Positions 22,600 to 31,166 of a stretch of DNA of 64,000 nt are shown piece after piece (position 1 is the stretch's first letter; every line of letters begins with the position of its first letter). The translations under genes and the position numbers were made by a program. Under the pieces are notes generated by a model, which was given only the letters and a program-made list of their open reading frames with translations, ran no database searches and was not told the origin of the DNA. This DNA comes from Nitrospirota bacterium (GTDB taxonomy: Bacteria > Nitrospirota > Thermodesulfovibrionia > Thermodesulfovibrionales > SM23-35): the NCBI GenBank assembly GCA_040753955.1, contig JBFMDQ010000003.1, positions 17,312 through 81,311 on the forward strand, read 5' to 3'.

Positions 22600-22688
22600 T
22601 AAGCATATTTTTCCATACGGCCTTTAGGGATCCGCAATATTTTGTTAGTCTTCTTGTTGTAACAATACGCATAAAATTATTACTTCAA

Positions 22689-23615
22689 TTAAAACGGCAT
22701 GAAGAACTTGTATTCCCTGATAAATTTCCTGAATGTCCTGGCGGCTACGGTTGAAGGCTCTTCATGAAGACTAATAAGATAGAACTTTCTCCTGAGCCTT
22801 TTAGTTGGCATATGCAAGAGCTTAATTGATCCATCCTTTAATGCACTGAAAACTGACCATTTTGAGACAAAGGATATTCCCATTCCCGACTGCACCATGC
22901 GAACAATCAACTCTGGATTGCCGAGCGTCATCGATACCTTTATGTTACCCGGCTCTATCCCTAAGTTATGTAGGAAATCATCTACCAATTCCCTTGTGCC
23001 TGAACCAGTTTCTGGCATTATGAATGGTTGGGAAATAAGATCCTGAGGTGTCAGAGGTTTTTTCTTTGTCAGGAGATTGTCATCAGATGCAATAATGACC
23101 ATCTCATCCTCAGCAATTTCCTCAAGATGAATCGTTGTCTTCTGGGGATTTCCCTCTACAATTCCTATATCAATCATTCCTTCACAGAGGTAGTCAATGG
23201 TAGATTCAGTATTTGAGACAGAGACTTCTATCTGGACCTCAGGATAATTTTTAGAAAAACTATAAAAGACTTGGGGGAGCAGGTATGTTGCTGCCGTTGG
23301 GCTTGCGCCTATAGAGAGTGGACCTCTTGCCTTGTGAACGAGGCTGTAAACATCATTTTCCATTTTTTTGTAGAGTTCGAGTATCTGTTTTGCATAGTCA
23401 TAAAAAAGCCTTCCGGCAGGTGTTGGTGTAACTGTCTTAGACTCCCTTTCCAATAGTTTAACGCCAAGTTCGTCTTCAAGATTTTTTATGAGGTGGCTCA
23501 TTGCAGACTGGGTCAAAAACTTTGCCTCTGCTGCTTTTGAAAAGCTTTTCATCTCAACAACGAGACAGAATGCCTTTAACCTGTGGTCTTCCATAACATT
23601 ATTGTAAGTAGTCAA
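22689..23615 (-). CDS. LysR-family transcriptional regulator, divergent from the porin/tungstate-uptake genes
   Basis: The 308-aa ORF has an N-terminal wHTH (FSKAAEAKFLTQSAMSHLIKNLE) and a LysR substrate-binding domain. Confidence 0.85.
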   Translation of the reverse strand: MTTYNNVMEDHRLKAFCLVVEMKSFSKAAEAKFLTQSAMSHLIKNLEDELGVKLLERESKTVTPTPAGRLFYDYAKQILELYKKMENDVYSLVHKARGPLSIGASPTAATYLLPQVFYSFSKNYPEVQIEVSVSNTESTIDYLCEGMIDIGIVEGNPQKTTIHLEEIAEDEMVIIASDDNLLTKKKPLTPQDLISQPFIMPETGSGTRELVDDFLHNLGIEPGNIKVSMTLGNPELIVRMVQSGMGISFVSKWSVFSALKDGSIKLLHMPTKRLRRKFYLISLHEEPSTVAARTFRKFIREYKFFMPF

Positions 23616-23723
23616 AGCAAGAGTGTCAAACAGCTAACTTATGAAATTAATTCATTCTTTTGATGAAAATTAAGAATTTGCCTTTCACTGTTAGCAAAAG
23701 TAATTTAATAATTGAAGGTACTG

Positions 23724-23822
23724 AGCAGGATTCTTATCGTAAGTTGCTTTATCTAATTTAGCTTGTCTTAGGCATAGGCTACAATCGGCTTGAGGTCAAA
23801 TACGTCAAATAAGAATCCTGCT
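23724..23822. promoter_or_regulatory. Perfect 14-bp inverted repeat pair (AGCAGGATTCTTAT / ATAAGAATCCTGCT) spaced 71 nt in the LysR-porin divergent region
   Basis: The arms lie at 23724-23737 and 23809-23822 and are exact reverse complements. Confidence 0.5.
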
Positions 23823-23911
23823 TTGGTTTTCTTCGCAATTAGGATAACCAATGATACTTTATGGATTTCAACATTCCACTTACACTCTAAATAAAAAAGG
23901 GAGATATTCAA

Positions 23912-25423
23912 ATGAAGAGATTATGTGTTTTTCTGCCTCTTTTCGTTTTTTCACTTTCAGTATGGATTTTGCCTGTTATGGCAGCAGACCCATCTATAGA
24001 GATAGAGCAACTTAAAAAAGATATGCAGCGACTTTTAGACGAGCAGACGATCCTAAAAAAGAGGATAGAGGAGTTAGAAAAAACTCAGACCCAGACCGAG
24101 ACAAAAACTATCGAAACAGAAAAAAAGGTTGTAGAAGCAGAGAAGAAAGGGATACTAGCCGGATATGATAAAGGTTTTTATATAAAGTCCCCTGATGAGA
24201 ATTTTCTCCTAAAGACCAATCTATTCCTCCAGTTTCGTTATACATATCTCCATTTTGACAGAACAGTTAATGTTAATGATGAGGACTGGAGCAACTTCTT
24301 CATAAGACGGGCGAGGGTCTTTTTTACAGGCAATGCACCTAATAAAGACTGGACATATTTCTTCCACATTCAGTTAGAGCCTACAAGCGCAGTTAACCTG
24401 CATGATGCATACGTGACATGGAAAAAATATCCTTATGCCCAGGTTCAGTTTGGCCGTTCCAAACTCCCTTATGGACTTCACTTCTGGCAATCTGCAAGCC
24501 TTCTTAACGGGATTGAAAGAAGTATCTTCTCAGGGGAAACAGATGTAGACGGCAGATCAGATACGAGGAAATGGCCTGGTGGGAATGCCAATTTCCCTGT
24601 CAGTGATGAAGATTCTGTTACAAAGTTTCCTATAGGTGGTTTTAATCTTTTCAGGTCTCAAGGGGTTCAGCTACAAGGTGATATTGATTTATTCGATCAG
24701 AATGGATTTTTACAATACTGGGCTGGAGTATATAACGGGAGAAATACGAAAGGAGGCATAAACATTGACAGCACATCTCTTTGGGTAGGCAGGATCTCTA
24801 TAAATCCATTCGGCAAATATAACCTGCTCCAGCAAGGCGACATAGATTACAGCAAAACCCCTAAGGTCTGTTTTCTTGTCTCAGGCTTCCATAATACAGA
24901 TCGATTAAGTAAGATTCGCAGTTCAACAGATGGAAAGGAACAATCAGTAAATCTCTATGACATTAAAGGTTCAGGTTACGATCTGGCTGCTTTATTCAGG
25001 TATAGGGGTTTTTCTGCGGATGCTGAATATGGCTATGACAGGTTTGAGCAGGATAGGGAAGGTGGAAATACCTGGGATCGTTTCGCCTATAGACTTGATG
25101 CTGGTTATTTCTTAATACCTAGGAAGTTTGAAATAGTAGCGAGGTATGCTTATGTTGAACGGCTTAAAGATAACAATATAGAAAGATCCCTTGCTTCAGG
25201 TCTGGGTCTTGTAAGTGTCAATGGTGGAACAAACAATGCTATTGAGGATAATCTCAGGGAATACACAGTTGGTTTAAACTATTATTTTTATGGACACAAC
25301 CTGAAGTTCTTTTTAGATTATAGTTATCTAACAAGGGAGTTTATCGAGGTTCCTGGTGCTTCAGTTTCTGCCGAAGACCAGCATGACAATAGGTATAGAG
25401 CGATGATACAGTTTTACTTCTAA
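23912..25423 (+). CDS. Outer-membrane porin (phosphate-selective porin O/P-like) with an N-terminal coiled coil
   Basis: The 503-aa ORF has a signal peptide (...LPVMAAD), a coiled-coil segment, alternating beta-strand patterning and a C-terminal aromatic residue (QFYF). Confidence 0.7.
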   Translation: MKRLCVFLPLFVFSLSVWILPVMAADPSIEIEQLKKDMQRLLDEQTILKKRIEELEKTQTQTETKTIETEKKVVEAEKKGILAGYDKGFYIKSPDENFLLKTNLFLQFRYTYLHFDRTVNVNDEDWSNFFIRRARVFFTGNAPNKDWTYFFHIQLEPTSAVNLHDAYVTWKKYPYAQVQFGRSKLPYGLHFWQSASLLNGIERSIFSGETDVDGRSDTRKWPGGNANFPVSDEDSVTKFPIGGFNLFRSQGVQLQGDIDLFDQNGFLQYWAGVYNGRNTKGGINIDSTSLWVGRISINPFGKYNLLQQGDIDYSKTPKVCFLVSGFHNTDRLSKIRSSTDGKEQSVNLYDIKGSGYDLAALFRYRGFSADAEYGYDRFEQDREGGNTWDRFAYRLDAGYFLIPRKFEIVARYAYVERLKDNNIERSLASGLGLVSVNGGTNNAIEDNLREYTVGLNYYFYGHNLKFFLDYSYLTREFIEVPGASVSAEDQHDNRYRAMIQFYF

Positions 25424-25607
25424 GTTAGGTGATTATTTTTACTGATAAGGTTCTTTTTTGTAATTTTTACGTTGTTGATCTGTTTCTATGCTAATATTAG
25501 AAATCAAAACTTGGGTTAAGGTTTAATTGATAAGTGAAATATCCTTTGTAGGAAGCTAAGGGCATTGTCCTATCAAGTAAACTGCGTATAGAATTTAAGG
25601 AGGTTAT

Positions 25608-26390
25608 ATGCCAAAAGAGAAAACAAAACTTGTGATTGCGTCGACCACAAGTACTCAACAGTCCGGACTTTTTGACATCCTCATACCGGCATATGAAAAA
25701 TCTTCGAAATACAATATAAAAGTGGAAATTATTGCTGTAGGGACGGGAAAAGCCATTAGGGTTGCGAAAAAAGGTGAGGCTGATTTACTCTTTGTTCATG
25801 ACCCTTTCAGAGAGGAAAAATTTGTTACTGAAGGATATGGTGTTAACAGAAGAGCTGTGATGCATAATGATTTTGTCATAATTGGCCCTGGGAATGACCC
25901 TGCAGGGATAAAAAAATTTAAAAATGCTGTAGAAGTCTTCGAAGAAATTGCAGAGAAGGGATCTCCCTTTGTATCGCGAGGAGATGACTCAGGCACAAAT
26001 ATCAAGGAATTAGATATCTGGGATAATGCTGGTATTAATCCAAAAGGTAAGGGCTGGTATTTTGAGACAGGTGCCAAAATGGGAGATACCTTACTCACTG
26101 CAAGTCAAAAAAGGGCCTACACAATGACTGATATAGGGACATTTCTAAATTACGAATCAAAAATCAATTTAAAGATACTCTTTAAAGGTGATCCTATATT
26201 GAGGAACAATTACAGTGTCATCGCAGTCAATCCCGAGAAATTTCCTGAAACCAAATATAGAGAAGCAATGGATTTTATCGCCTTCGTTACATCACCTGAG
26301 GGTCAACGTTTAATTGCGAATTATAAAAAACACGGTATTAATCTTTTCTATCCAGATGCTATCCCATCAGTGATGACCAAGGGAAAATAG
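25608..26390 (+). CDS. TupA-like tungstate/molybdate-binding protein lacking a signal peptide
   Basis: The 260-aa ORF has the ASTTSTQQSGL anion-binding motif and SRGDDSGT. AAGGAGG lies just upstream, and an in-frame stop 4 codons upstream excludes an N-terminal extension. Confidence 0.75.
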   Translation: MPKEKTKLVIASTTSTQQSGLFDILIPAYEKSSKYNIKVEIIAVGTGKAIRVAKKGEADLLFVHDPFREEKFVTEGYGVNRRAVMHNDFVIIGPGNDPAGIKKFKNAVEVFEEIAEKGSPFVSRGDDSGTNIKELDIWDNAGINPKGKGWYFETGAKMGDTLLTASQKRAYTMTDIGTFLNYESKINLKILFKGDPILRNNYSVIAVNPEKFPETKYREAMDFIAFVTSPEGQRLIANYKKHGINLFYPDAIPSVMTKGK

Positions 26391-26414
26391 ATAATCCGGT
26401 CTGTGGAGGCCAAG

Positions 26415-27278
26415 ATGAGATTACAAAATTGTTTTCTATTTTTATTACTGATTATTGTCTTAAATGAAGGAACTTCAGTTTCTTATGCACAGGAAAAATG
26501 TGCAGAAGTATATGGAAGTGGTCCTAACAAATTTTCTCTTGCTACAGGGAGTCCCGGAGAACTTGGTCTCTTAAAAGTCTTGGGAGAAGCTTTCGGAAAA
26601 GAGATGAATACAACTCTCTGCTGGATAAAGGCCGGTTCAGGAGAGGCTTTAAGGCTTTTGAAAGAAAAGGCTGTCGACATGATCATGGTACATGATCCTT
26701 CTGCAGAGAGGAAGGCAGTGGCAGAAGGGTGGGCTACGAAAAGGATACTTATTGGTTCAAACGAATTTTATATCGTTGGTCCTCCTGATGACCCTGCAAA
26801 GATTACAGAAGCAAGTGATGCTCGGGATGCTTATACTCGTATAGCAAAAGCAAAGGCCAAATTCTTTTCCAGAGGTGATAACTCAGGGACTCACAAGAAG
26901 GAGATGGAAATTTGGAAGAAGACCGGCATTTTGCCTTCTGGGGACTGGTATGTTGTCACAAAAGATTTTATGACAGCAACCCTAAAAAGAGCTAATGATG
27001 AAAAAGGATACTTCATGACTGACAGCAGTACGTGGGTGGCAGAGAAAAAGAATATGCCTAATCTGAAAATACTTTTTAGAGGGAACAAATTTCTTGTCAA
27101 TACATATCATGCTCTTTGCCAACCTGAAGGGGCAACACCAAGGGGAACGACTGCGACAAAGTTTATAGATTTTGTATCCTCTGAGAAAGGACAAAAACTT
27201 ATTAGAGAGTATGGAAAAGATCTTTATGGCGATGGACTTTATAATGATGCAGCTTATGCACGCAAGTATGAGGAATAA
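26415..27278 (+). CDS. Divergent TupA-family periplasmic binding protein
   Basis: It has a signal peptide. The paralogous fold shows SRGDNSGTHKKE, but the first anion motif is changed to ATGSPGELG. GGAGG lies 5 nt upstream of the ATG at 26415. Confidence 0.7.
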   Translation: MRLQNCFLFLLLIIVLNEGTSVSYAQEKCAEVYGSGPNKFSLATGSPGELGLLKVLGEAFGKEMNTTLCWIKAGSGEALRLLKEKAVDMIMVHDPSAERKAVAEGWATKRILIGSNEFYIVGPPDDPAKITEASDARDAYTRIAKAKAKFFSRGDNSGTHKKEMEIWKKTGILPSGDWYVVTKDFMTATLKRANDEKGYFMTDSSTWVAEKKNMPNLKILFRGNKFLVNTYHALCQPEGATPRGTTATKFIDFVSSEKGQKLIREYGKDLYGDGLYNDAAYARKYEE

Positions 27279-27306
27279 TATATCACCGAAAAAGGAGGAG
27301 GAAAAA

Positions 27307-28128
27307 ATGAGATTACTGAAAGTCATTTTAACGTTAGCTTTTGTTTTAGTGGTTGGCATAAATATAGGTGTTTCAGCAGATAAGGAAATAATCCTGGCGT
27401 CCACTACAAGCACAGAGAACTCAGGGTTATTTGATTATATCCTGCCTATTTTTGAAAAGAAGACTGGGATAAAGGTAAAAGTCGTTGCCCGTGGTACAGG
27501 AGCAGCTATTGAGATGGGAAAGAGAGGAGATGCTGACGTTGTCTTTGTTCATGCTAAGGAACAGGAATTGAAGGCTGTTGAGGAAGGGTACTTTGTTAAT
27601 CACCATGATGTTATGTATAACGATTTTGTTATTATTGGGCCTATTGATGACCCAGCAAACATAAAAGGGATAAAATCAGCATCTGAGGCATTTCGAAAAA
27701 TAGCAGAGAGTGGACGTCCATTTGTTTCACGTGGAGACAATTCAGGCACGCACACAAAGGAACTTGCTGTATGGAAAAAGACAGGGATAGACCCGAAAGG
27801 GCAAAAATGGTATCTTGAATCCGGTCAGGGAATGGAAAAGACACAGAGGATTGCAAATGAAAAAAGGGCATATACCCTTACAGACCGGGGAACGTGGCTT
27901 GCGACAAGGGAGAAGGACAAACTTGAAATGGTGATTGTTCTCGAAGGAGATCCTGCCCTCTTTAATCAGTATGGAGTCATGGCTGTAAACCCTCAGAAAC
28001 AAAAACATGTAAAATACAAAGAGGCTATGGAGTTCATCAACTGGCTAATATCAAAAGAAGGTCAAAAGGCCATAGCATCATTTAAGGACAGCTATGGTAA
28101 TCAGCTTTTTTTCCCAAATGCAAAATAG
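27307..28128 (+). CDS. tupA: Periplasmic tungstate-binding protein TupA
   Basis: The start is set at MRLLKVIL after AAAGGAGGAGG. It has a signal peptide plus ASTTSTENSGL and SRGDNSGTH motifs. Confidence 0.8.
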   Translation: MRLLKVILTLAFVLVVGINIGVSADKEIILASTTSTENSGLFDYILPIFEKKTGIKVKVVARGTGAAIEMGKRGDADVVFVHAKEQELKAVEEGYFVNHHDVMYNDFVIIGPIDDPANIKGIKSASEAFRKIAESGRPFVSRGDNSGTHTKELAVWKKTGIDPKGQKWYLESGQGMEKTQRIANEKRAYTLTDRGTWLATREKDKLEMVIVLEGDPALFNQYGVMAVNPQKQKHVKYKEAMEFINWLISKEGQKAIASFKDSYGNQLFFPNAK

Positions 28129-28134
28129 ATAAAA

Positions 28135-28848
28135 ATGGATTCTATCATAGAGGGTTTTAGAAAGGCATTTTACCTTATATTAAATTTCGATCCAGAGTTT
28201 TTAAGTATTATCGTTCTATCCTTTAAGGTTTCTGGTACAGCCCTTATAATAGCAACAGTTTTAGGTTTGCCGATTGGTGCCCTGACAGGATTGAAGAGAT
28301 TTCCGGGAAGGGGATTAATCATCAGTCTCCTGAATACTTTTATGGGTCTTCCACCTGTCGTTGTTGGACTCTTTCTATATCTTCTACTATCAAGGAGAGG
28401 ACCCCTCGGCTTCATGGCCTTGCTCTATACACCTTCAGCAATGATTATTGCCCAGAGCATTCTTGCTTTTCCTATCGTGGCTGCCCTTTCCCACTCAGCT
28501 ATTAAAAAAATTGAGCCTCTCATTAAACAGGCTTCACTTACCCTTGGTGCAACGCCTTTCCAGGTGATGATTACTATTATAAAAGAAGCAAGGTATGGGA
28601 TTATGTCAGGGGTAATTGCTGCCCTTGGGAGGGTGATGGCTGAGGTAGGGGCAATACTTATTGTAGGTGGCAATATTGCTGGTTATACACGTGTTATGAC
28701 CACGACCATTGCCCTTGAGACGGATAAGGGGAATTTTGAACTTGCCCTCGCACTTGGTATTATACTTTTAATGTTGTCATTTATTATAAACATGTTCTTA
28801 TATTTGATTCAGAAAAAAGGCGTAGTAGAGACTGCTATATGGACCTAA
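28135..28848 (+). CDS. tupB: Tungstate ABC transporter permease
   Basis: The 237-aa ORF has 5-6 TM segments and an EAA-like loop (KQASLTLGATPFQ). Confidence 0.8.
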   Translation: MDSIIEGFRKAFYLILNFDPEFLSIIVLSFKVSGTALIIATVLGLPIGALTGLKRFPGRGLIISLLNTFMGLPPVVVGLFLYLLLSRRGPLGFMALLYTPSAMIIAQSILAFPIVAALSHSAIKKIEPLIKQASLTLGATPFQVMITIIKEARYGIMSGVIAALGRVMAEVGAILIVGGNIAGYTRVMTTTIALETDKGNFELALALGIILLMLSFIINMFLYLIQKKGVVETAIWT

Positions 28849-29495
28849 AATTGATTACTTCAAATATTTATAAGAGTTACGACGGAAAGCCTGTCCTAAA
28901 AGACTGTTCCTTTTCATTTGATAGAAGTGGAACCTACGTTCTGACGGGTCCTAATGGTAGTGGCAAGTCAACATTCTTCAGGATATGTGGCCTTCTTGAA
29001 GATCCTGATGAAGGGGAAGTTAATTATTTTTCAGGGGTACATATTTTAAAGAGAGACATTGAACTAAGACGCAGGATAACCCTTTTATTGCCGAAAGTTG
29101 GGATTTTTAACACTACGGTATTTAAGAATACGGCTTATGGGCTGAGGATAAGGGGAATGAAAGGGCCTAAAATAAAGGAAAAAGTTGATAAGGCATTGGA
29201 GTTTGTTGGACTGACTCATAAAAAGAATCAGAATGCCCTGACCCTTTCAAGCGGAGAGACACAAAGGCTTGGTATTGCGAGGGCGATGGTTATTGAGCCT
29301 GAAATATTTTTCCTCGATGAACCAACAGCATCTGTTGATCAAGAAAATACAGAAATAATAGAAGATATTATTTTAAAAATGAAAAAAGAGGAAAGGTCAA
29401 TTGTTGTCATTGCAACCCATGACATGGCCCAGGCAAAAAGACTCGCAGACTGGTTACTCTTAATGAAGGACGGAAAAATTATTTCCTCCTGGTGA
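28839..29495 (+). CDS. tupC: Tungstate ABC transporter ATP-binding protein
   Basis: The 218-aa ORF has Walker A GPNGSGKST, signature LSSGETQR and Walker B FFLDEP. Confidence 0.85.
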   Translation: MDLKLITSNIYKSYDGKPVLKDCSFSFDRSGTYVLTGPNGSGKSTFFRICGLLEDPDEGEVNYFSGVHILKRDIELRRRITLLLPKVGIFNTTVFKNTAYGLRIRGMKGPKIKEKVDKALEFVGLTHKKNQNALTLSSGETQRLGIARAMVIEPEIFFLDEPTASVDQENTEIIEDIILKMKKEERSIVVIATHDMAQAKRLADWLLLMKDGKIISSW

Positions 29496-29803: not shown

Positions 29804-30403
29804 ATGGATGAGATCATATTTATCTCTCTTGGCCTTTTGGTAGTCCTCGCTGCCCTGAAGATTGCCTTTGCCCTCCTTACTGGTCTATCATCATTTAAGA
29901 CGGGAGGGGCCATGTTTACTACTACCCATCGCTCAAAGATAAAAAAGATCTTAGAGGCCATACCTATGTGTCCCGGGCAGGTAGTCTATGATCTGGGATG
30001 CGGGGACGGAAGATTCTTGATAGCTGCAGCGAAAAGATATAAAGTAAAGGCCATTGGCTTCGAGATAAACCCCTGGGCCTATCTACTATCCAAGTTCAGA
30101 GTGGGACTCTGTCAAGCAAATGTCTCCATCCACTTTCAGGACTTCTGGAAGACAGACCTCAGCGAGGCAGATATAGTCTTCTGCTACCTTTTCCCTGATG
30201 TGATGGAAAGATTGAGAGAAAAGCTTTCCAAGGAACTCAAGGCTGGGGTTAAGGTCATAAGCTGTAACTTCGAAATACCAGGATGGAAACCTGAAAAGAT
30301 AATCACCGCCTCCCATCCCACACACACAGATCCCATTTTCATATATACCAATTTGCTATGGTGCGCCCAGGAGGATTCGAACCCCCGACTTTCGGATTCG
30401 TAG
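29804..30403 (+). CDS. Membrane-anchored class I SAM-dependent methyltransferase
   Basis: The 199-aa ORF has an N-terminal TM helix and SAM motif I VYDLGCGDGRF. Its last 15 codons are antisense to tRNA-Arg. Confidence 0.7.
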   Translation: MDEIIFISLGLLVVLAALKIAFALLTGLSSFKTGGAMFTTTHRSKIKKILEAIPMCPGQVVYDLGCGDGRFLIAAAKRYKVKAIGFEINPWAYLLSKFRVGLCQANVSIHFQDFWKTDLSEADIVFCYLFPDVMERLREKLSKELKAGVKVISCNFEIPGWKPEKIITASHPTHTDPIFIYTNLLWCAQEDSNPRLSDS

Positions 30404-30435
30404 TCCGACGCTCTATCCAGCTGAGCTATGGGCGC
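30359..30435 (-). tRNA. tRNA-Arg (anticodon ACG), CCA encoded
   Basis: The 77-nt cloverleaf was folded by hand. It has acceptor GCGCCCA/TGGGCGC, anticodon loop CTACGAA and T arm GGGGG-TTCGAAT-CCTCC. Confidence 0.9.
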
Positions 30436-30443
30436 GCAGTTCT

Positions 30444-31034
30444 TTACCCTTTTTTTGCAACCCCTTGCTTCAGTCTGATGCTGTATTTAGGATGGTTAAG
30501 TGGATGTACCGATGGTAACTTGGAGAATAACCATCCCCATTTTTTCCCGGATGTAGGAAATATTTGTTTATCGTCCTCAAAAACCCTTATATTGACTGCC
30601 GGATTATTAGGCTCGTTGGAGGCCGAGGTCAGAACAAATCCATCCATCCTAAAGTCAGGTAGGAATTCTCCAACATGGATGTTAAGATTGGAATTCGGGA
30701 TTTTGAAATCGCTATTTAGATTTACTGTGTATTCCAGGGTTTTCTTTGTAATCTTATCTTCAACGATAATCTTTACCGCAGCCCATTTGCCCTTAACAAA
30801 ATCAGGCACTAATATCTGTGATTCTCTCATTGGCATCATCATGCCAGGTCCTGGAACTGGCTGCTGCCCCTCTGGCGATATCGGCCCCTGCATTATAGGC
30901 CCTTGTGGTATCTGTCCAGGTGCCATTGGAACTTGAGTTTTTGGGACAGGTGGCTGAGTTTCCTTCTTCTTACATGCACTTACTGAACCAGCTAAAACAA
31001 AACACAATGCCACTGTCAACACCCTTTTTTTCAT
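30444..31034 (-). CDS. Lipoprotein with a P/Q/G-rich linker, function unknown
   Basis: The 196-aa ORF has a signal peptide with lipobox LAGSVSAC and a proline-rich low-complexity segment followed by a globular domain. Confidence 0.6.
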   Translation of the reverse strand: MKKRVLTVALCFVLAGSVSACKKKETQPPVPKTQVPMAPGQIPQGPIMQGPISPEGQQPVPGPGMMMPMRESQILVPDFVKGKWAAVKIIVEDKITKKTLEYTVNLNSDFKIPNSNLNIHVGEFLPDFRMDGFVLTSASNEPNNPAVNIRVFEDDKQIFPTSGKKWGWLFSKLPSVHPLNHPKYSIRLKQGVAKKG

Positions 31035-31073: not shown

Positions 31074-31166
31074 TGGCGGAGAGGCAGGGATTCGAACCCT
31101 GGGTGAGGTTTTACCCCCACAACCGCTTAGCAGGCGGCTGCCTTAGACCAACTCGGCCACCTCTCC
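31074..31166 (-). tRNA. tRNA-Ser (anticodon GCU), CCA encoded
   Basis: The 93-nt hand fold has acceptor GGAGAGG/CCTCTCC, anticodon loop CTGCTAA, a long variable arm and T arm CAGGG-TTCGAAT-CCCTG. Confidence 0.9.

Follow-up and report, generated by a model that had tools for sequence, protein, structure and literature searches.

A candidate envelope-spanning tungstate and/or molybdate uptake cassette: an OprP-like porin, three TupA classes and a LysR-type regulator in a Thermodesulfovibrionales genome

INTRODUCTION

How do tungstate and molybdate cross the envelope of an anaerobe that uses them, and how are they told apart? To our knowledge, the passage of either anion across the outer membrane is essentially uncharacterised, and discrimination between tungsten (W) and molybdenum (Mo) is a long-standing question that has usually been approached one binding protein at a time. 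Both problems are raised by a seven-gene locus of a Nitrospirota bacterium. We analysed a stretch of 64 000 nucleotides (hereafter, the window; positions 17 312 to 81 311 of contig JBFMDQ010000003.1) from a Thermodesulfovibrionales metagenome-assembled genome (MAG) of 1.69 Mb that is 97.8% complete. In the window, a lysR gene diverges from a porin gene that is followed by three tupA paralogues and by tupB and tupC, which encode the permease and ATPase of an ATP-binding cassette (ABC) importer.

We think it likely that the accessory front-end cassette of lysR, porin and tupA1-3, together with the core tupBC behind it, makes up an envelope-spanning tungstate and/or molybdate uptake system; the prediction is made from sequence. 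An earlier reading of the letters and their open reading frames (ORFs), called here the sequence-only reading, had proposed a Tup-type oxyanion ABC importer, and this assignment is supported by the domains, TupA pocket residues and phylogeny described below.

RESULTS

Organisation of the locus

The seven genes, in the order lysR <> porin-tupA1-tupA2-tupA3-tupB-tupC, are all intact in the ORF list and their families are backed by Pfam and NCBIfam, which confirms the locus at the place where the sequence-only reading had put it. Its features are:

22689-23594, minus strand: lysR, 301 amino acids (aa) from ATG 23594, the ORF reaching TTG 23615; HTH_1 and LysR_substrate domains
23601-23629, minus strand: candidate lysR promoter TTGACA-17-TACAAT, 11/12 matches in a promoter scan
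23641-23677, no strand assigned: predicted operator for a transcriptional regulator of the LysR type (LTTR), two boxes, ATGAAATTAATTCAT (23641-23655) and ATGAAAATTAAGAAT (23663-23677)
23724-23822, plus strand: leader hairpin with a 14-bp inverted repeat, from an RNA fold
23912-25423, plus strand: OprP/OprO-type anion porin, 503 aa; PF07396; signal peptide and N-terminal coiled coil
25608-26390, plus strand: tupA1, leaderless TupA paralogue, 260 aa; PBP_like_2 domain
26415-27278, plus strand: tupA2, exported TupA-like protein from ATG 26415, alternative GTG start at 26403; PBP_like_2 domain
27307-28128, plus strand: tupA3, canonical exported TupA with STTS, H, R, T and D complete; PBP_like_2 domain
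28135-28848, plus strand: tupB, ABC permease; BPD_transp_1 domain
28839-29495, plus strand: tupC, short ABC ATPase, 218 aa; ABC_tran domain

The true start of lysR is ATG 23594 (its orthologues begin MEDHRL). That of tupA3 is ATG 27307, behind a GGAGGAGG site; the ORF listed at 27172 overlaps tupA2. TupB scores 253 bits against NF038017, above the cutoff, and its product is 95% identical in a genome of the same genus (G001). TupC covers positions 4-208 of the 319-position TupC model, the C-terminal third with the TOBE/regulatory domain being missing.

Three classes of TupA

The pocket of Desulfovibrio alaskensis TupA comprises a TTTS loop, His59, Arg118, Thr124 and Asp170 (PMC5517513). By residue mapping, TupA3 and TupA1 both carry STTS together with the H, R, T and D, i.e. 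the full TupA residue set. TupA2 retains H, R, T and D, with TGS in place of TTTS and other pocket changes. TupA3 matched the Geobacter TupA 3lr1 (1e-78) and the D. alaskensis TupA 5my5 (2e-62), and is 44-53% identical to the solved TupAs; TupA2 is 35-38% identical to TupA1, TupA3 and the solved TupAs. In NCBIfam the TupA model was the only meaningful match for each of the three binding proteins.

Phylogenetic placement, a check proposed with the sequence-only reading, was run on a tree of 34 sequences and gave three clades, one per TupA class and each with 100% support. TupA1 and TupA3 fall within a 100/100 clade that holds the characterised D. alaskensis (5MY5) and Geobacter (3LR1) TupAs. 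TupA3 groups with single-copy TupAs, whilst the TupA1 clade (100/100) is a leaderless offshoot inside this canonical group. The TupA2 clade (100/100) stands separate and branches deeply, outside the canonical group; its branch is 1.88 substitutions per site long.

TupA1 has neither a signal peptide nor a hydrophobic N-terminus; its start follows an AAGGAGG ribosome-binding site (RBS), with a stop codon four codons upstream. Its orthologues always have their own strong RBS and an MPKEK/MAKEK start, and the 120 homologue clusters listed are all at least 79% identical, at 257-310 aa (most 260 aa). Since the absence of a signal peptide is conserved, TupA1 is predicted to be cytoplasmic and not a receptor of the transporter. 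The proposal that three binding proteins serve one importer therefore holds for the number of tupA genes but not for their use: with TupA1 leaderless, only two would be periplasmic. The TupA1 clade also has invariant changes (MYNDF to MHNDF, SGTH to SGTN and TDRGT to TD(I/V/L/M)GT), and has lost the Arg that follows Asp170.

TupA2 has a pocket signature of its own (A-TGS-PGELGL, GSNEF, KDFM, TDSST, NTYH and CQPE) that is near-invariant across Nitrospirota and Thermodesulfobacteriota, and TupA2-type proteins are 71-88% identical across the two phyla. Elsewhere, their genes lie beside a TaoR-type regulator and tupABC; at one locus (L094) an ABC pair has a TupA2-type protein as its only binding protein, and TOBE and MOT1 genes lie a few kb away. 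These other contexts of TupA2 are Mo/W contexts. The sequence-only reading had also suggested that three binding proteins point to discrimination between oxyanions, and the distinct clades with their clade-specific pocket signatures fit such a predicted specialisation.

Demand for W and Mo, and the choice of substrate

The genome has three TupA-like genes in all, every one at the tup locus, and no ModA, WtpA or MOT1 homologues were found in this 97.8%-complete MAG. It encodes two AOR-type enzymes and five Mo/W-bis-pyranopterin guanine dinucleotide (bisPGD) enzymes, in keeping with the anaerobe rich in W/Mo enzymes that had been envisaged from the locus. One of the bisPGD genes, for a formate dehydrogenase (FDH), has an in-frame TGA and selD is selenocysteine (Sec)-containing, so the genome decodes Sec. 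Because there are only these three TupA-like genes, no ModA, WtpA or MOT1, and both AOR and bisPGD genes, the tup locus is, on the gene content, the sole recognisable group-6 oxyanion importer of an organism that would need W and probably Mo.

The substrates could still differ from plain tungstate. They might be mainly molybdate, or TupA2 might take vanadate or, in sulfidic habitats, thio-tungstate or thio-molybdate. We think this unlikely, since TupA3 and TupA1 have the full canonical residue set and cluster with a tungstate-selective TupA, and the two AOR-family genes speak for a genuine need of tungsten. It would, however, account for a genome without ModA and WtpA whose five bisPGD enzymes may require Mo, for a TupA2 pocket that is rewritten with fewer hydroxyl donors and invariant across phyla, and for the L094 protein serving alone a few kb from MOT1/TOBE. 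For thio-anion binding by TupA2, there is no supporting chemistry.

An OprP-like porin linked to tup genes

The porin matched Porin_O_P (PF07396) with 58.8 bits against a gathering cutoff of 20.9, and its AlphaFold2 model has a beta-barrel preceded by a signal peptide and by one long helix that spans residues 30-76, as expected of the O/P-type porin with a coiled-coil N-terminus that the sequence-only reading had described. The top Protein Data Bank matches in Foldseek were OprP 2o4v (E 5e-15) and OprO 4rjw (~1e-14), with a template modelling (TM) score on the target of 0.62-0.67. DcaP (6EUS), which carries an N-terminal periplasmic coiled coil, was also among the structural matches. Invariant across 15 homologues are many Arg/Lys residues (R132, R133, R135, R182, K184, R203, R248, R390, R417, K465, R475, R494 and R496), which are candidates for an arginine ladder and a lysine cluster of the OprP/OprO kind along the pore. 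There is also a weak NCBIfam match to ExtI, a selenite/tellurite porin, at the C-terminus. The coiled coil is a feature of the lineage and not specific to tup, because paralogous porins of the lineage have a coiled-coil N-terminus too.

With OprP and OprO of Pseudomonas aeruginosa (2O4V, 4RJW), its best structural matches, the host porin shares the Pfam family, and its barrel has many invariant Arg/Lys residues. It differs in being only 14-17% identical to them in structural alignments, in its added N-terminal coiled coil and in lying inside a tup operon and apparently not in a Pho regulon.

Co-conservation of the porin and LysR genes with tup genes in relatives, on which the sequence-only reading had staked its claim, was found, with the porin linked at ~14/~20 loci. 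In detail, porin orthologues (63-84% identity) occur in 8/36 other family-level genomes searched, and among the ~20 loci with a porin at least 60% identical five or six have no tup neighbours. The usual order in relatives is A1-(A2)-A3-porin-B-C, with the porin within the operon; only the locus type found in genome G020 places the porin first, as the window does. The link extends to a Syntrophales MAG (TupA-porin) and to a Thermodesulfobacteriota MAG with a complete LysR<>A1(260 aa)-A2-A3-porin-B-C module. Distant Porin_O_P members (25-26% identity) precede tupABC in Geothermobacter/Geopsychrobacter-type (Desulfuromonadales-type) MAGs. Because these distant porins precede tupABC while homologues at middle distance sit elsewhere, the porin probably belongs to a general anion-porin family whose tup-linked lineages were recruited more than once.

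One further MAG, SO_2017_GW3_27, has four binding-protein genes in the order A1-A1-A2-A3-porin-B-C (L040, 6115-13162).

Could the porin and LysR be generic neighbours that have nothing to do functionally with tup, for example a porin for phosphate or for anions in general, next to an unrelated regulator? Porin_O_P is best known for phosphate and pyrophosphate, and several close porin orthologues and all the 37-46% homologues have no tup neighbours. We nonetheless consider this very improbable: the porin lies between tupA3 and tupB with short spacers at many loci in two phyla, a distant porin lineage has independently formed the link porin-tupABC, no pst or pho genes lie near the porin in the window, and the LysR clade and its operator (see below) track tup loci.

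A tup-linked clade of LysR regulators

The regulator scored 267.4 bits against NF040786, the 'selenium metabolism-associated LysR' model (cutoff 250 bits). This LysR_Se subfamily is defined by linkage to selA/selB/selD (PMC5322559). The genome has three NF040786-type paralogues. The best-scoring one (309 bits), to which the tup-linked LysR is 31% identical, lies on contig C10, where it diverges from selB and has a YedE-like gene and selD close by. Tup-adjacent LysRs from seven loci, including Thermodesulfobacteriota, form one clade (support 100/99) with 57-83% identity, and are 30-33% identical to the selB-linked copy. The regulator is thus placed by sequence in a tup-linked LTTR clade of its own.

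A tie to selenium would make the LysR_Se-type regulator the key, with a transporter that imports or is controlled by Se oxyanions and possibly co-ordinates W and Se for a Sec-containing W-FDH. It could call on the NF040786 score, the weak ExtI match, Sec decoding (selD and the FDH with an in-frame TGA) and an fdhA-like relic in the leader (see below). It is scarcely probable, because the best LysR_Se match is the selB-adjacent paralogue whilst the tup LysR forms a separate clade, and because the binding proteins carry TupA residues, have Mo/W contexts elsewhere and have no Se genes at the locus. The same distinction applies to LysR_Se/HrsM (Lin et al. 2015, PMC5322559): the host LysR is above the NF040786 cutoff and its organism decodes selenocysteine, but it is the better-scoring paralogue that stands beside sel genes. 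The C10 region (L035:5667-14026) is a selenium island in its own right: besides selB, the divergent LysR and a YedE-like Sulf_transp gene, it holds selD, which carries an in-frame TGA.

The closest solved relatives of the tup-linked regulator are YeiE-type LTTRs. YeiE binds sulfite; Arg191 pairs the anion and Glu145 excludes tetrahedral sulfate (PMC8931317). The host protein has the pocket signature S-x-N-T-E-P-S-T with Pro at YeiE Arg191, and scores 187.5 bits on the YeiE equivalog against a cutoff of 480. Pro is found at this position, with Glu145 kept, in 7/7 tup-linked LysRs examined; both paralogues retain Arg. Like YeiE (7ERP, 8SBH), the host LysR retains equivalents of Ser96, Asn126, Glu145, Ser195 and Thr197; unlike it, it has Pro for Arg191 and would target the tup operon, not yeiH. 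A possible homology of the LysR effector domain to TupA was rejected: the PBP_like_2 match was marginal (31.5 bits) and BLASTP against TupA3 gave E 0.63.

TunR, the tungstate-responsive regulator of sulfate reducers, controls W/Mo homeostasis genes, and the sequence-only reading had considered the host LysR a plausible member of this kind. TunR reportedly combines a XerC/XerD-like DNA-binding domain with ModE-like TOBE domains. The identification fails, as the host regulator is HTH_1 plus LysR_substrate and the XerC-like/TOBE gene of this genome sits on another contig. That gene (on C7, L034:6299-7393, minus strand) encodes a 364-aa protein, Phage_integrase-like with two TOBE domains, i.e. of TunR architecture. 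It adjoins a TauE-type exporter gene and a Usp gene, and in two relatives, G031 and G035, orthologues with 71-84% identity are found 3-5 kb downstream of tupC.

A predicted operator and a relic in the leader

The dyad ATGAAATTAATTCAT is of the T-N11-A type, ATGAA-N5-TTCAT. The second box, ATGAAAATTAAGAAT, is degenerate, lies 22 bp away and abuts a TTGCCT -35 element (23678-23683). The box is conserved beside lysR in nearly all orthologous loci, and in every one with the divergent arrangement, often as a pair 22 bp apart, and in the divergent loci of relatives the second, weaker box abuts a TTGAC(T)/TTGCCT -35. The exact box has three copies in the 1.69 Mb genome, and with one mismatch it occurs at 0.08 per kb. 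This layout matches the standard LTTR arrangement of recognition and activation sites and is our predicted operator. On the lysR side, only 7 nt separate the end of the -10 from the ATG, and the mRNA may therefore be leaderless or near-leaderless; the GTGTCAA element of this promoter is conserved in orthologous loci. Where lysR lies 1.5-6 kb from tupA1, the box pair remains with lysR and its divergent gene. A box upstream of tupA1 was sought where lysR is remote and was absent in 6/7 such loci. In L040, an exact ATGAA-N5-TTCAT box lies between the two A1 copies.

A hairpin in the porin leader has as its arms a perfect 14-bp inverted repeat (23724-23737 / 23809-23822; -37.6 kcal/mol, z -4.9). 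The repeat is single-copy in the genome, on which ground a mobile palindromic element was rejected, and the G020-type locus preserves it, with a compensatory change. The loop and right arm (23771-23830, minus strand) are a ~17-codon relic of a Sec-FDH-like 5′ end. The hairpin core is the reverse complement of the Tat-signal end AGVLFGVFDLKPIVAYA of Sec-containing FDH-like alpha subunits on other contigs, and the minus-strand relic reads ...AGFLFDVFDLKPIVAYA and then a stop. No intact source gene of the relic was found in the genome. At the G020-type locus two relic copies flank the porin gene (L096:6872 and L096:8793), which suggests that the porin moved to the operon front by recombination. 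We read the hairpin as a recombination relic that now would form the 5′ stem-loop of the porin leader, possibly with a stabilising role.

Two regulatory roles were rejected. Antisense regulation of a resident fdhA finds the host Sec-FDH only 36% identical there, and riboswitch control of the operon finds no Moco/Wco riboswitch, an Rfam scan at E<=1 matching only two tRNAs. These tRNA genes lie downstream of the locus (window 30362-30435 and 31077-31166, minus strand), where the long ORFs listed over them (30358-30936, plus strand) are spurious. In another genome (G021, L110:9953-10786), a 278-aa molybdopterin oxidoreductase fragment with C-terminal Molybdopterin and Molydop_binding domains lies between lysR and tupA1, another Mo/W-enzyme remnant within the control region.

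LysR travels with leaderless TupA1, and the front end is probably exchanged

Among the loci fetched, a tup-type LysR gene is adjacent or within 6 kb at 19/21 loci with leaderless tupA1 and at 0/11 loci without it. Counted over the host and 60 relatives (LysR at least 59% and TupA1 at least 72% identical), 17 genomes have both, none has TupA1 only, three have LysR only and 41 have neither. The three LysR-only genomes are all fragmented or incomplete assemblies. In one genome (G018) the two genes are on different contigs, and one carries a second locus with LysR<>A1-A2 only. Much of this co-occurrence can be put down to inheritance of a single cassette from a common ancestor, and related genomes are not independent.

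At five loci where lysR lies several kb from tupA1, the gene divergent from it encodes a ~700-aa TonB-dependent receptor (Plug and barrel). Four of the five have no porin, and one has both receptor and porin. After the receptor gene come those for a membrane protein and for an Oxidored_molyb-domain protein and/or a TonB, ahead of A1-A3-B-C. Such receptors may provide an energy-driven outer-membrane route for W/Mo species. Since relatives place a TonB-dependent receptor behind the same regulator, an outer-membrane entry device, either a porin or a TonB-dependent receptor, is a recurrent part of the regulon. The inserts that separate the lysR operator from tupA1 at L108, L109, L111, L115 and L038 include a Cytochrom_C_asm-like membrane protein and a 252-aa protein lacking assigned function.

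No orthologue of the tup-linked receptor was found in the host genome. A host contig (C51:153-4911, which includes a run of N) has an HTH-less ORF with a LysR-type effector domain (215 aa) beside genes for TonB, ExbD/ExbB-like proteins and a TonB-dependent receptor; as a second tup-type module it was rejected, the LysR-like gene having only 27% identity.

Within the same genus, G001 has the same flanking genes around tupA-B-C only. Nucleotide identity between the two genomes is 96.7% over tupBC and 78% over tupA, and the stretch of the window from 22613 to 27396 (lysR, porin, tupA1, tupA2 and the 5′ end of tupA3) has no counterpart in G001. The nearest relative of the cassette is the G020-type locus (82-86%). 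As this site holds just tupA-B-C in G001, we regard LysR-porin-A1-A2-A3 as a cassette that was swapped in, the block having been gained in the host or lost from G001.

DISCUSSION

How would the oxyanion be carried across the whole envelope? Following the LTTR paradigm and the conservation of the operator, LysR would bind the box pair between its own promoter and that of the operon and control both. The operon mRNA would begin with a stable 5′ hairpin. An OprP-like, probably trimeric porin with a periplasmic coiled coil would, judged by its fold and synteny, pass the oxyanion through the outer membrane. In the periplasm, the canonical TupA3 and the pocket-variant TupA2 would each bind a different oxyanion species and deliver it to a single TupB2C2 translocator. 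More speculatively, cytoplasmic TupA1 may bind the imported oxyanion as a buffer, a hand-off protein or a sensor.

Several observations weigh against this reading of the locus. The porin model is of moderate confidence (predicted local distance difference test, pLDDT, 73.9). Close orthologues of the porin (60-78% identity) at L039, L048-L050 and L056 have no tup link, and homologues at 37-55% identity adjoin Mo-oxidoreductase or YeiH-family genes, so that tup specificity does not extend to the porin family as a whole. Throughout the importer, scores stay below the equivalog cutoffs: for TupA (NF041772, 400 bits) TupA3 scores 263, TupA1 231 and TupA2 137 bits; TupB scores 181 against 320 bits (NF041773) and TupC 129 against 400 bits (NF041774). 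The TupA cutoff is narrow, being reached in 0/61 genomes (the host and 60 relatives) and 0/14 controls. Because Arg191 is replaced by Pro and Glu145 is retained, direct sensing of tungstate or another tetrahedral oxyanion in the canonical LysR pocket is not supported. Finally, the related genomes are non-independent samples.

How, then, might the regulator sense the imported anion? The co-occurrence of LysR and TupA1 combined with the Arg-less pocket leads us to a tentative and rather doubtful idea: that leaderless TupA1 and the tup-linked LysR are a two-piece cytoplasmic W/Mo sensor, in one regulon that recruits interchangeable outer-membrane devices. TupA1 would bind the imported oxyanion and switch the Arg-less LTTR through protein-protein contact. 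In AmiC/AmiR and NasS/NasT, binding-protein homologues that lack a leader act as cytoplasmic ligand sensors and govern the regulator with which they are paired. The host likewise encodes a cytoplasmic binding-protein homologue beside, and co-occurring with, a regulator; however, the partners there are ANTAR antiterminators whereas the host partner is an LTTR and the interaction is hypothetical. A precedent for cytoplasmic TupA-type sensing is TaoR, a further tungstate-responsive regulator of W/Mo homeostasis genes in sulfate reducers, which has a cytoplasmic PBP-like (TupA-like) domain (PMC11980592). Unlike TunR and TaoR, the host regulator is a classical LTTR.

The weakest alternative takes the additional tupA genes for redundant or decaying copies, and TupA1 for a functionless remnant that has no signal peptide. 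It can draw on the commonness of tandem duplication in ABC loci and on paralogue numbers of 1 to 4 among relatives, but hardly fits the conservation of TupA1 and TupA2 (at least 71-79% over >100 sequence clusters and across phyla) with invariant signatures and intact frames, nor the constant RBS and start of TupA1. The class pattern indicates, as far as conservation can tell, specialisation under selection and not decay.

The uptake system that we favour would be of a known kind, working like TupABC of Eubacterium acidaminophilum, Campylobacter jejuni and Desulfovibrio alaskensis G20 (5MY5, 3LR1), with which it shares PBP_like_2, the pocket residues and one permease and one ATPase gene. It departs from them in having three TupA classes, one leaderless and one with a rewritten pocket, an added porin gene, a short TupC, and LysR instead of ModE, TunR or TaoR. 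A literature search found no Mo/W porin, LysR regulator of tup or cytoplasmic TupA. New here are an OprP-like porin encoded within the operon, a leaderless class of TupA that goes with a dedicated LTTR clade, the TGS-type TupA2 class and the cassette behaviour.

For the outer-membrane step, the module offers a candidate dedicated channel, plus a TonB-dependent alternative in relatives under the same operator. Its three co-encoded TupA classes, with their conserved pocket differences, are a natural specificity series, and its regulator belongs to a previously undescribed LTTR clade with a defined, predicted operator. Whether the cytoplasmic TupA buffers the anion, hands it on or senses it, its role could bring to light a new stage on the way from import to cofactor synthesis. 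As small soluble or barrel proteins, all the parts lend themselves to heterologous expression. That the block was apparently gained like a cassette, judged against a congener, would mean that anaerobes exchange the capacity to acquire trace metals as a unit, and the locus is a testable model both for how trace metals cross the envelope and for how W and Mo are told apart.

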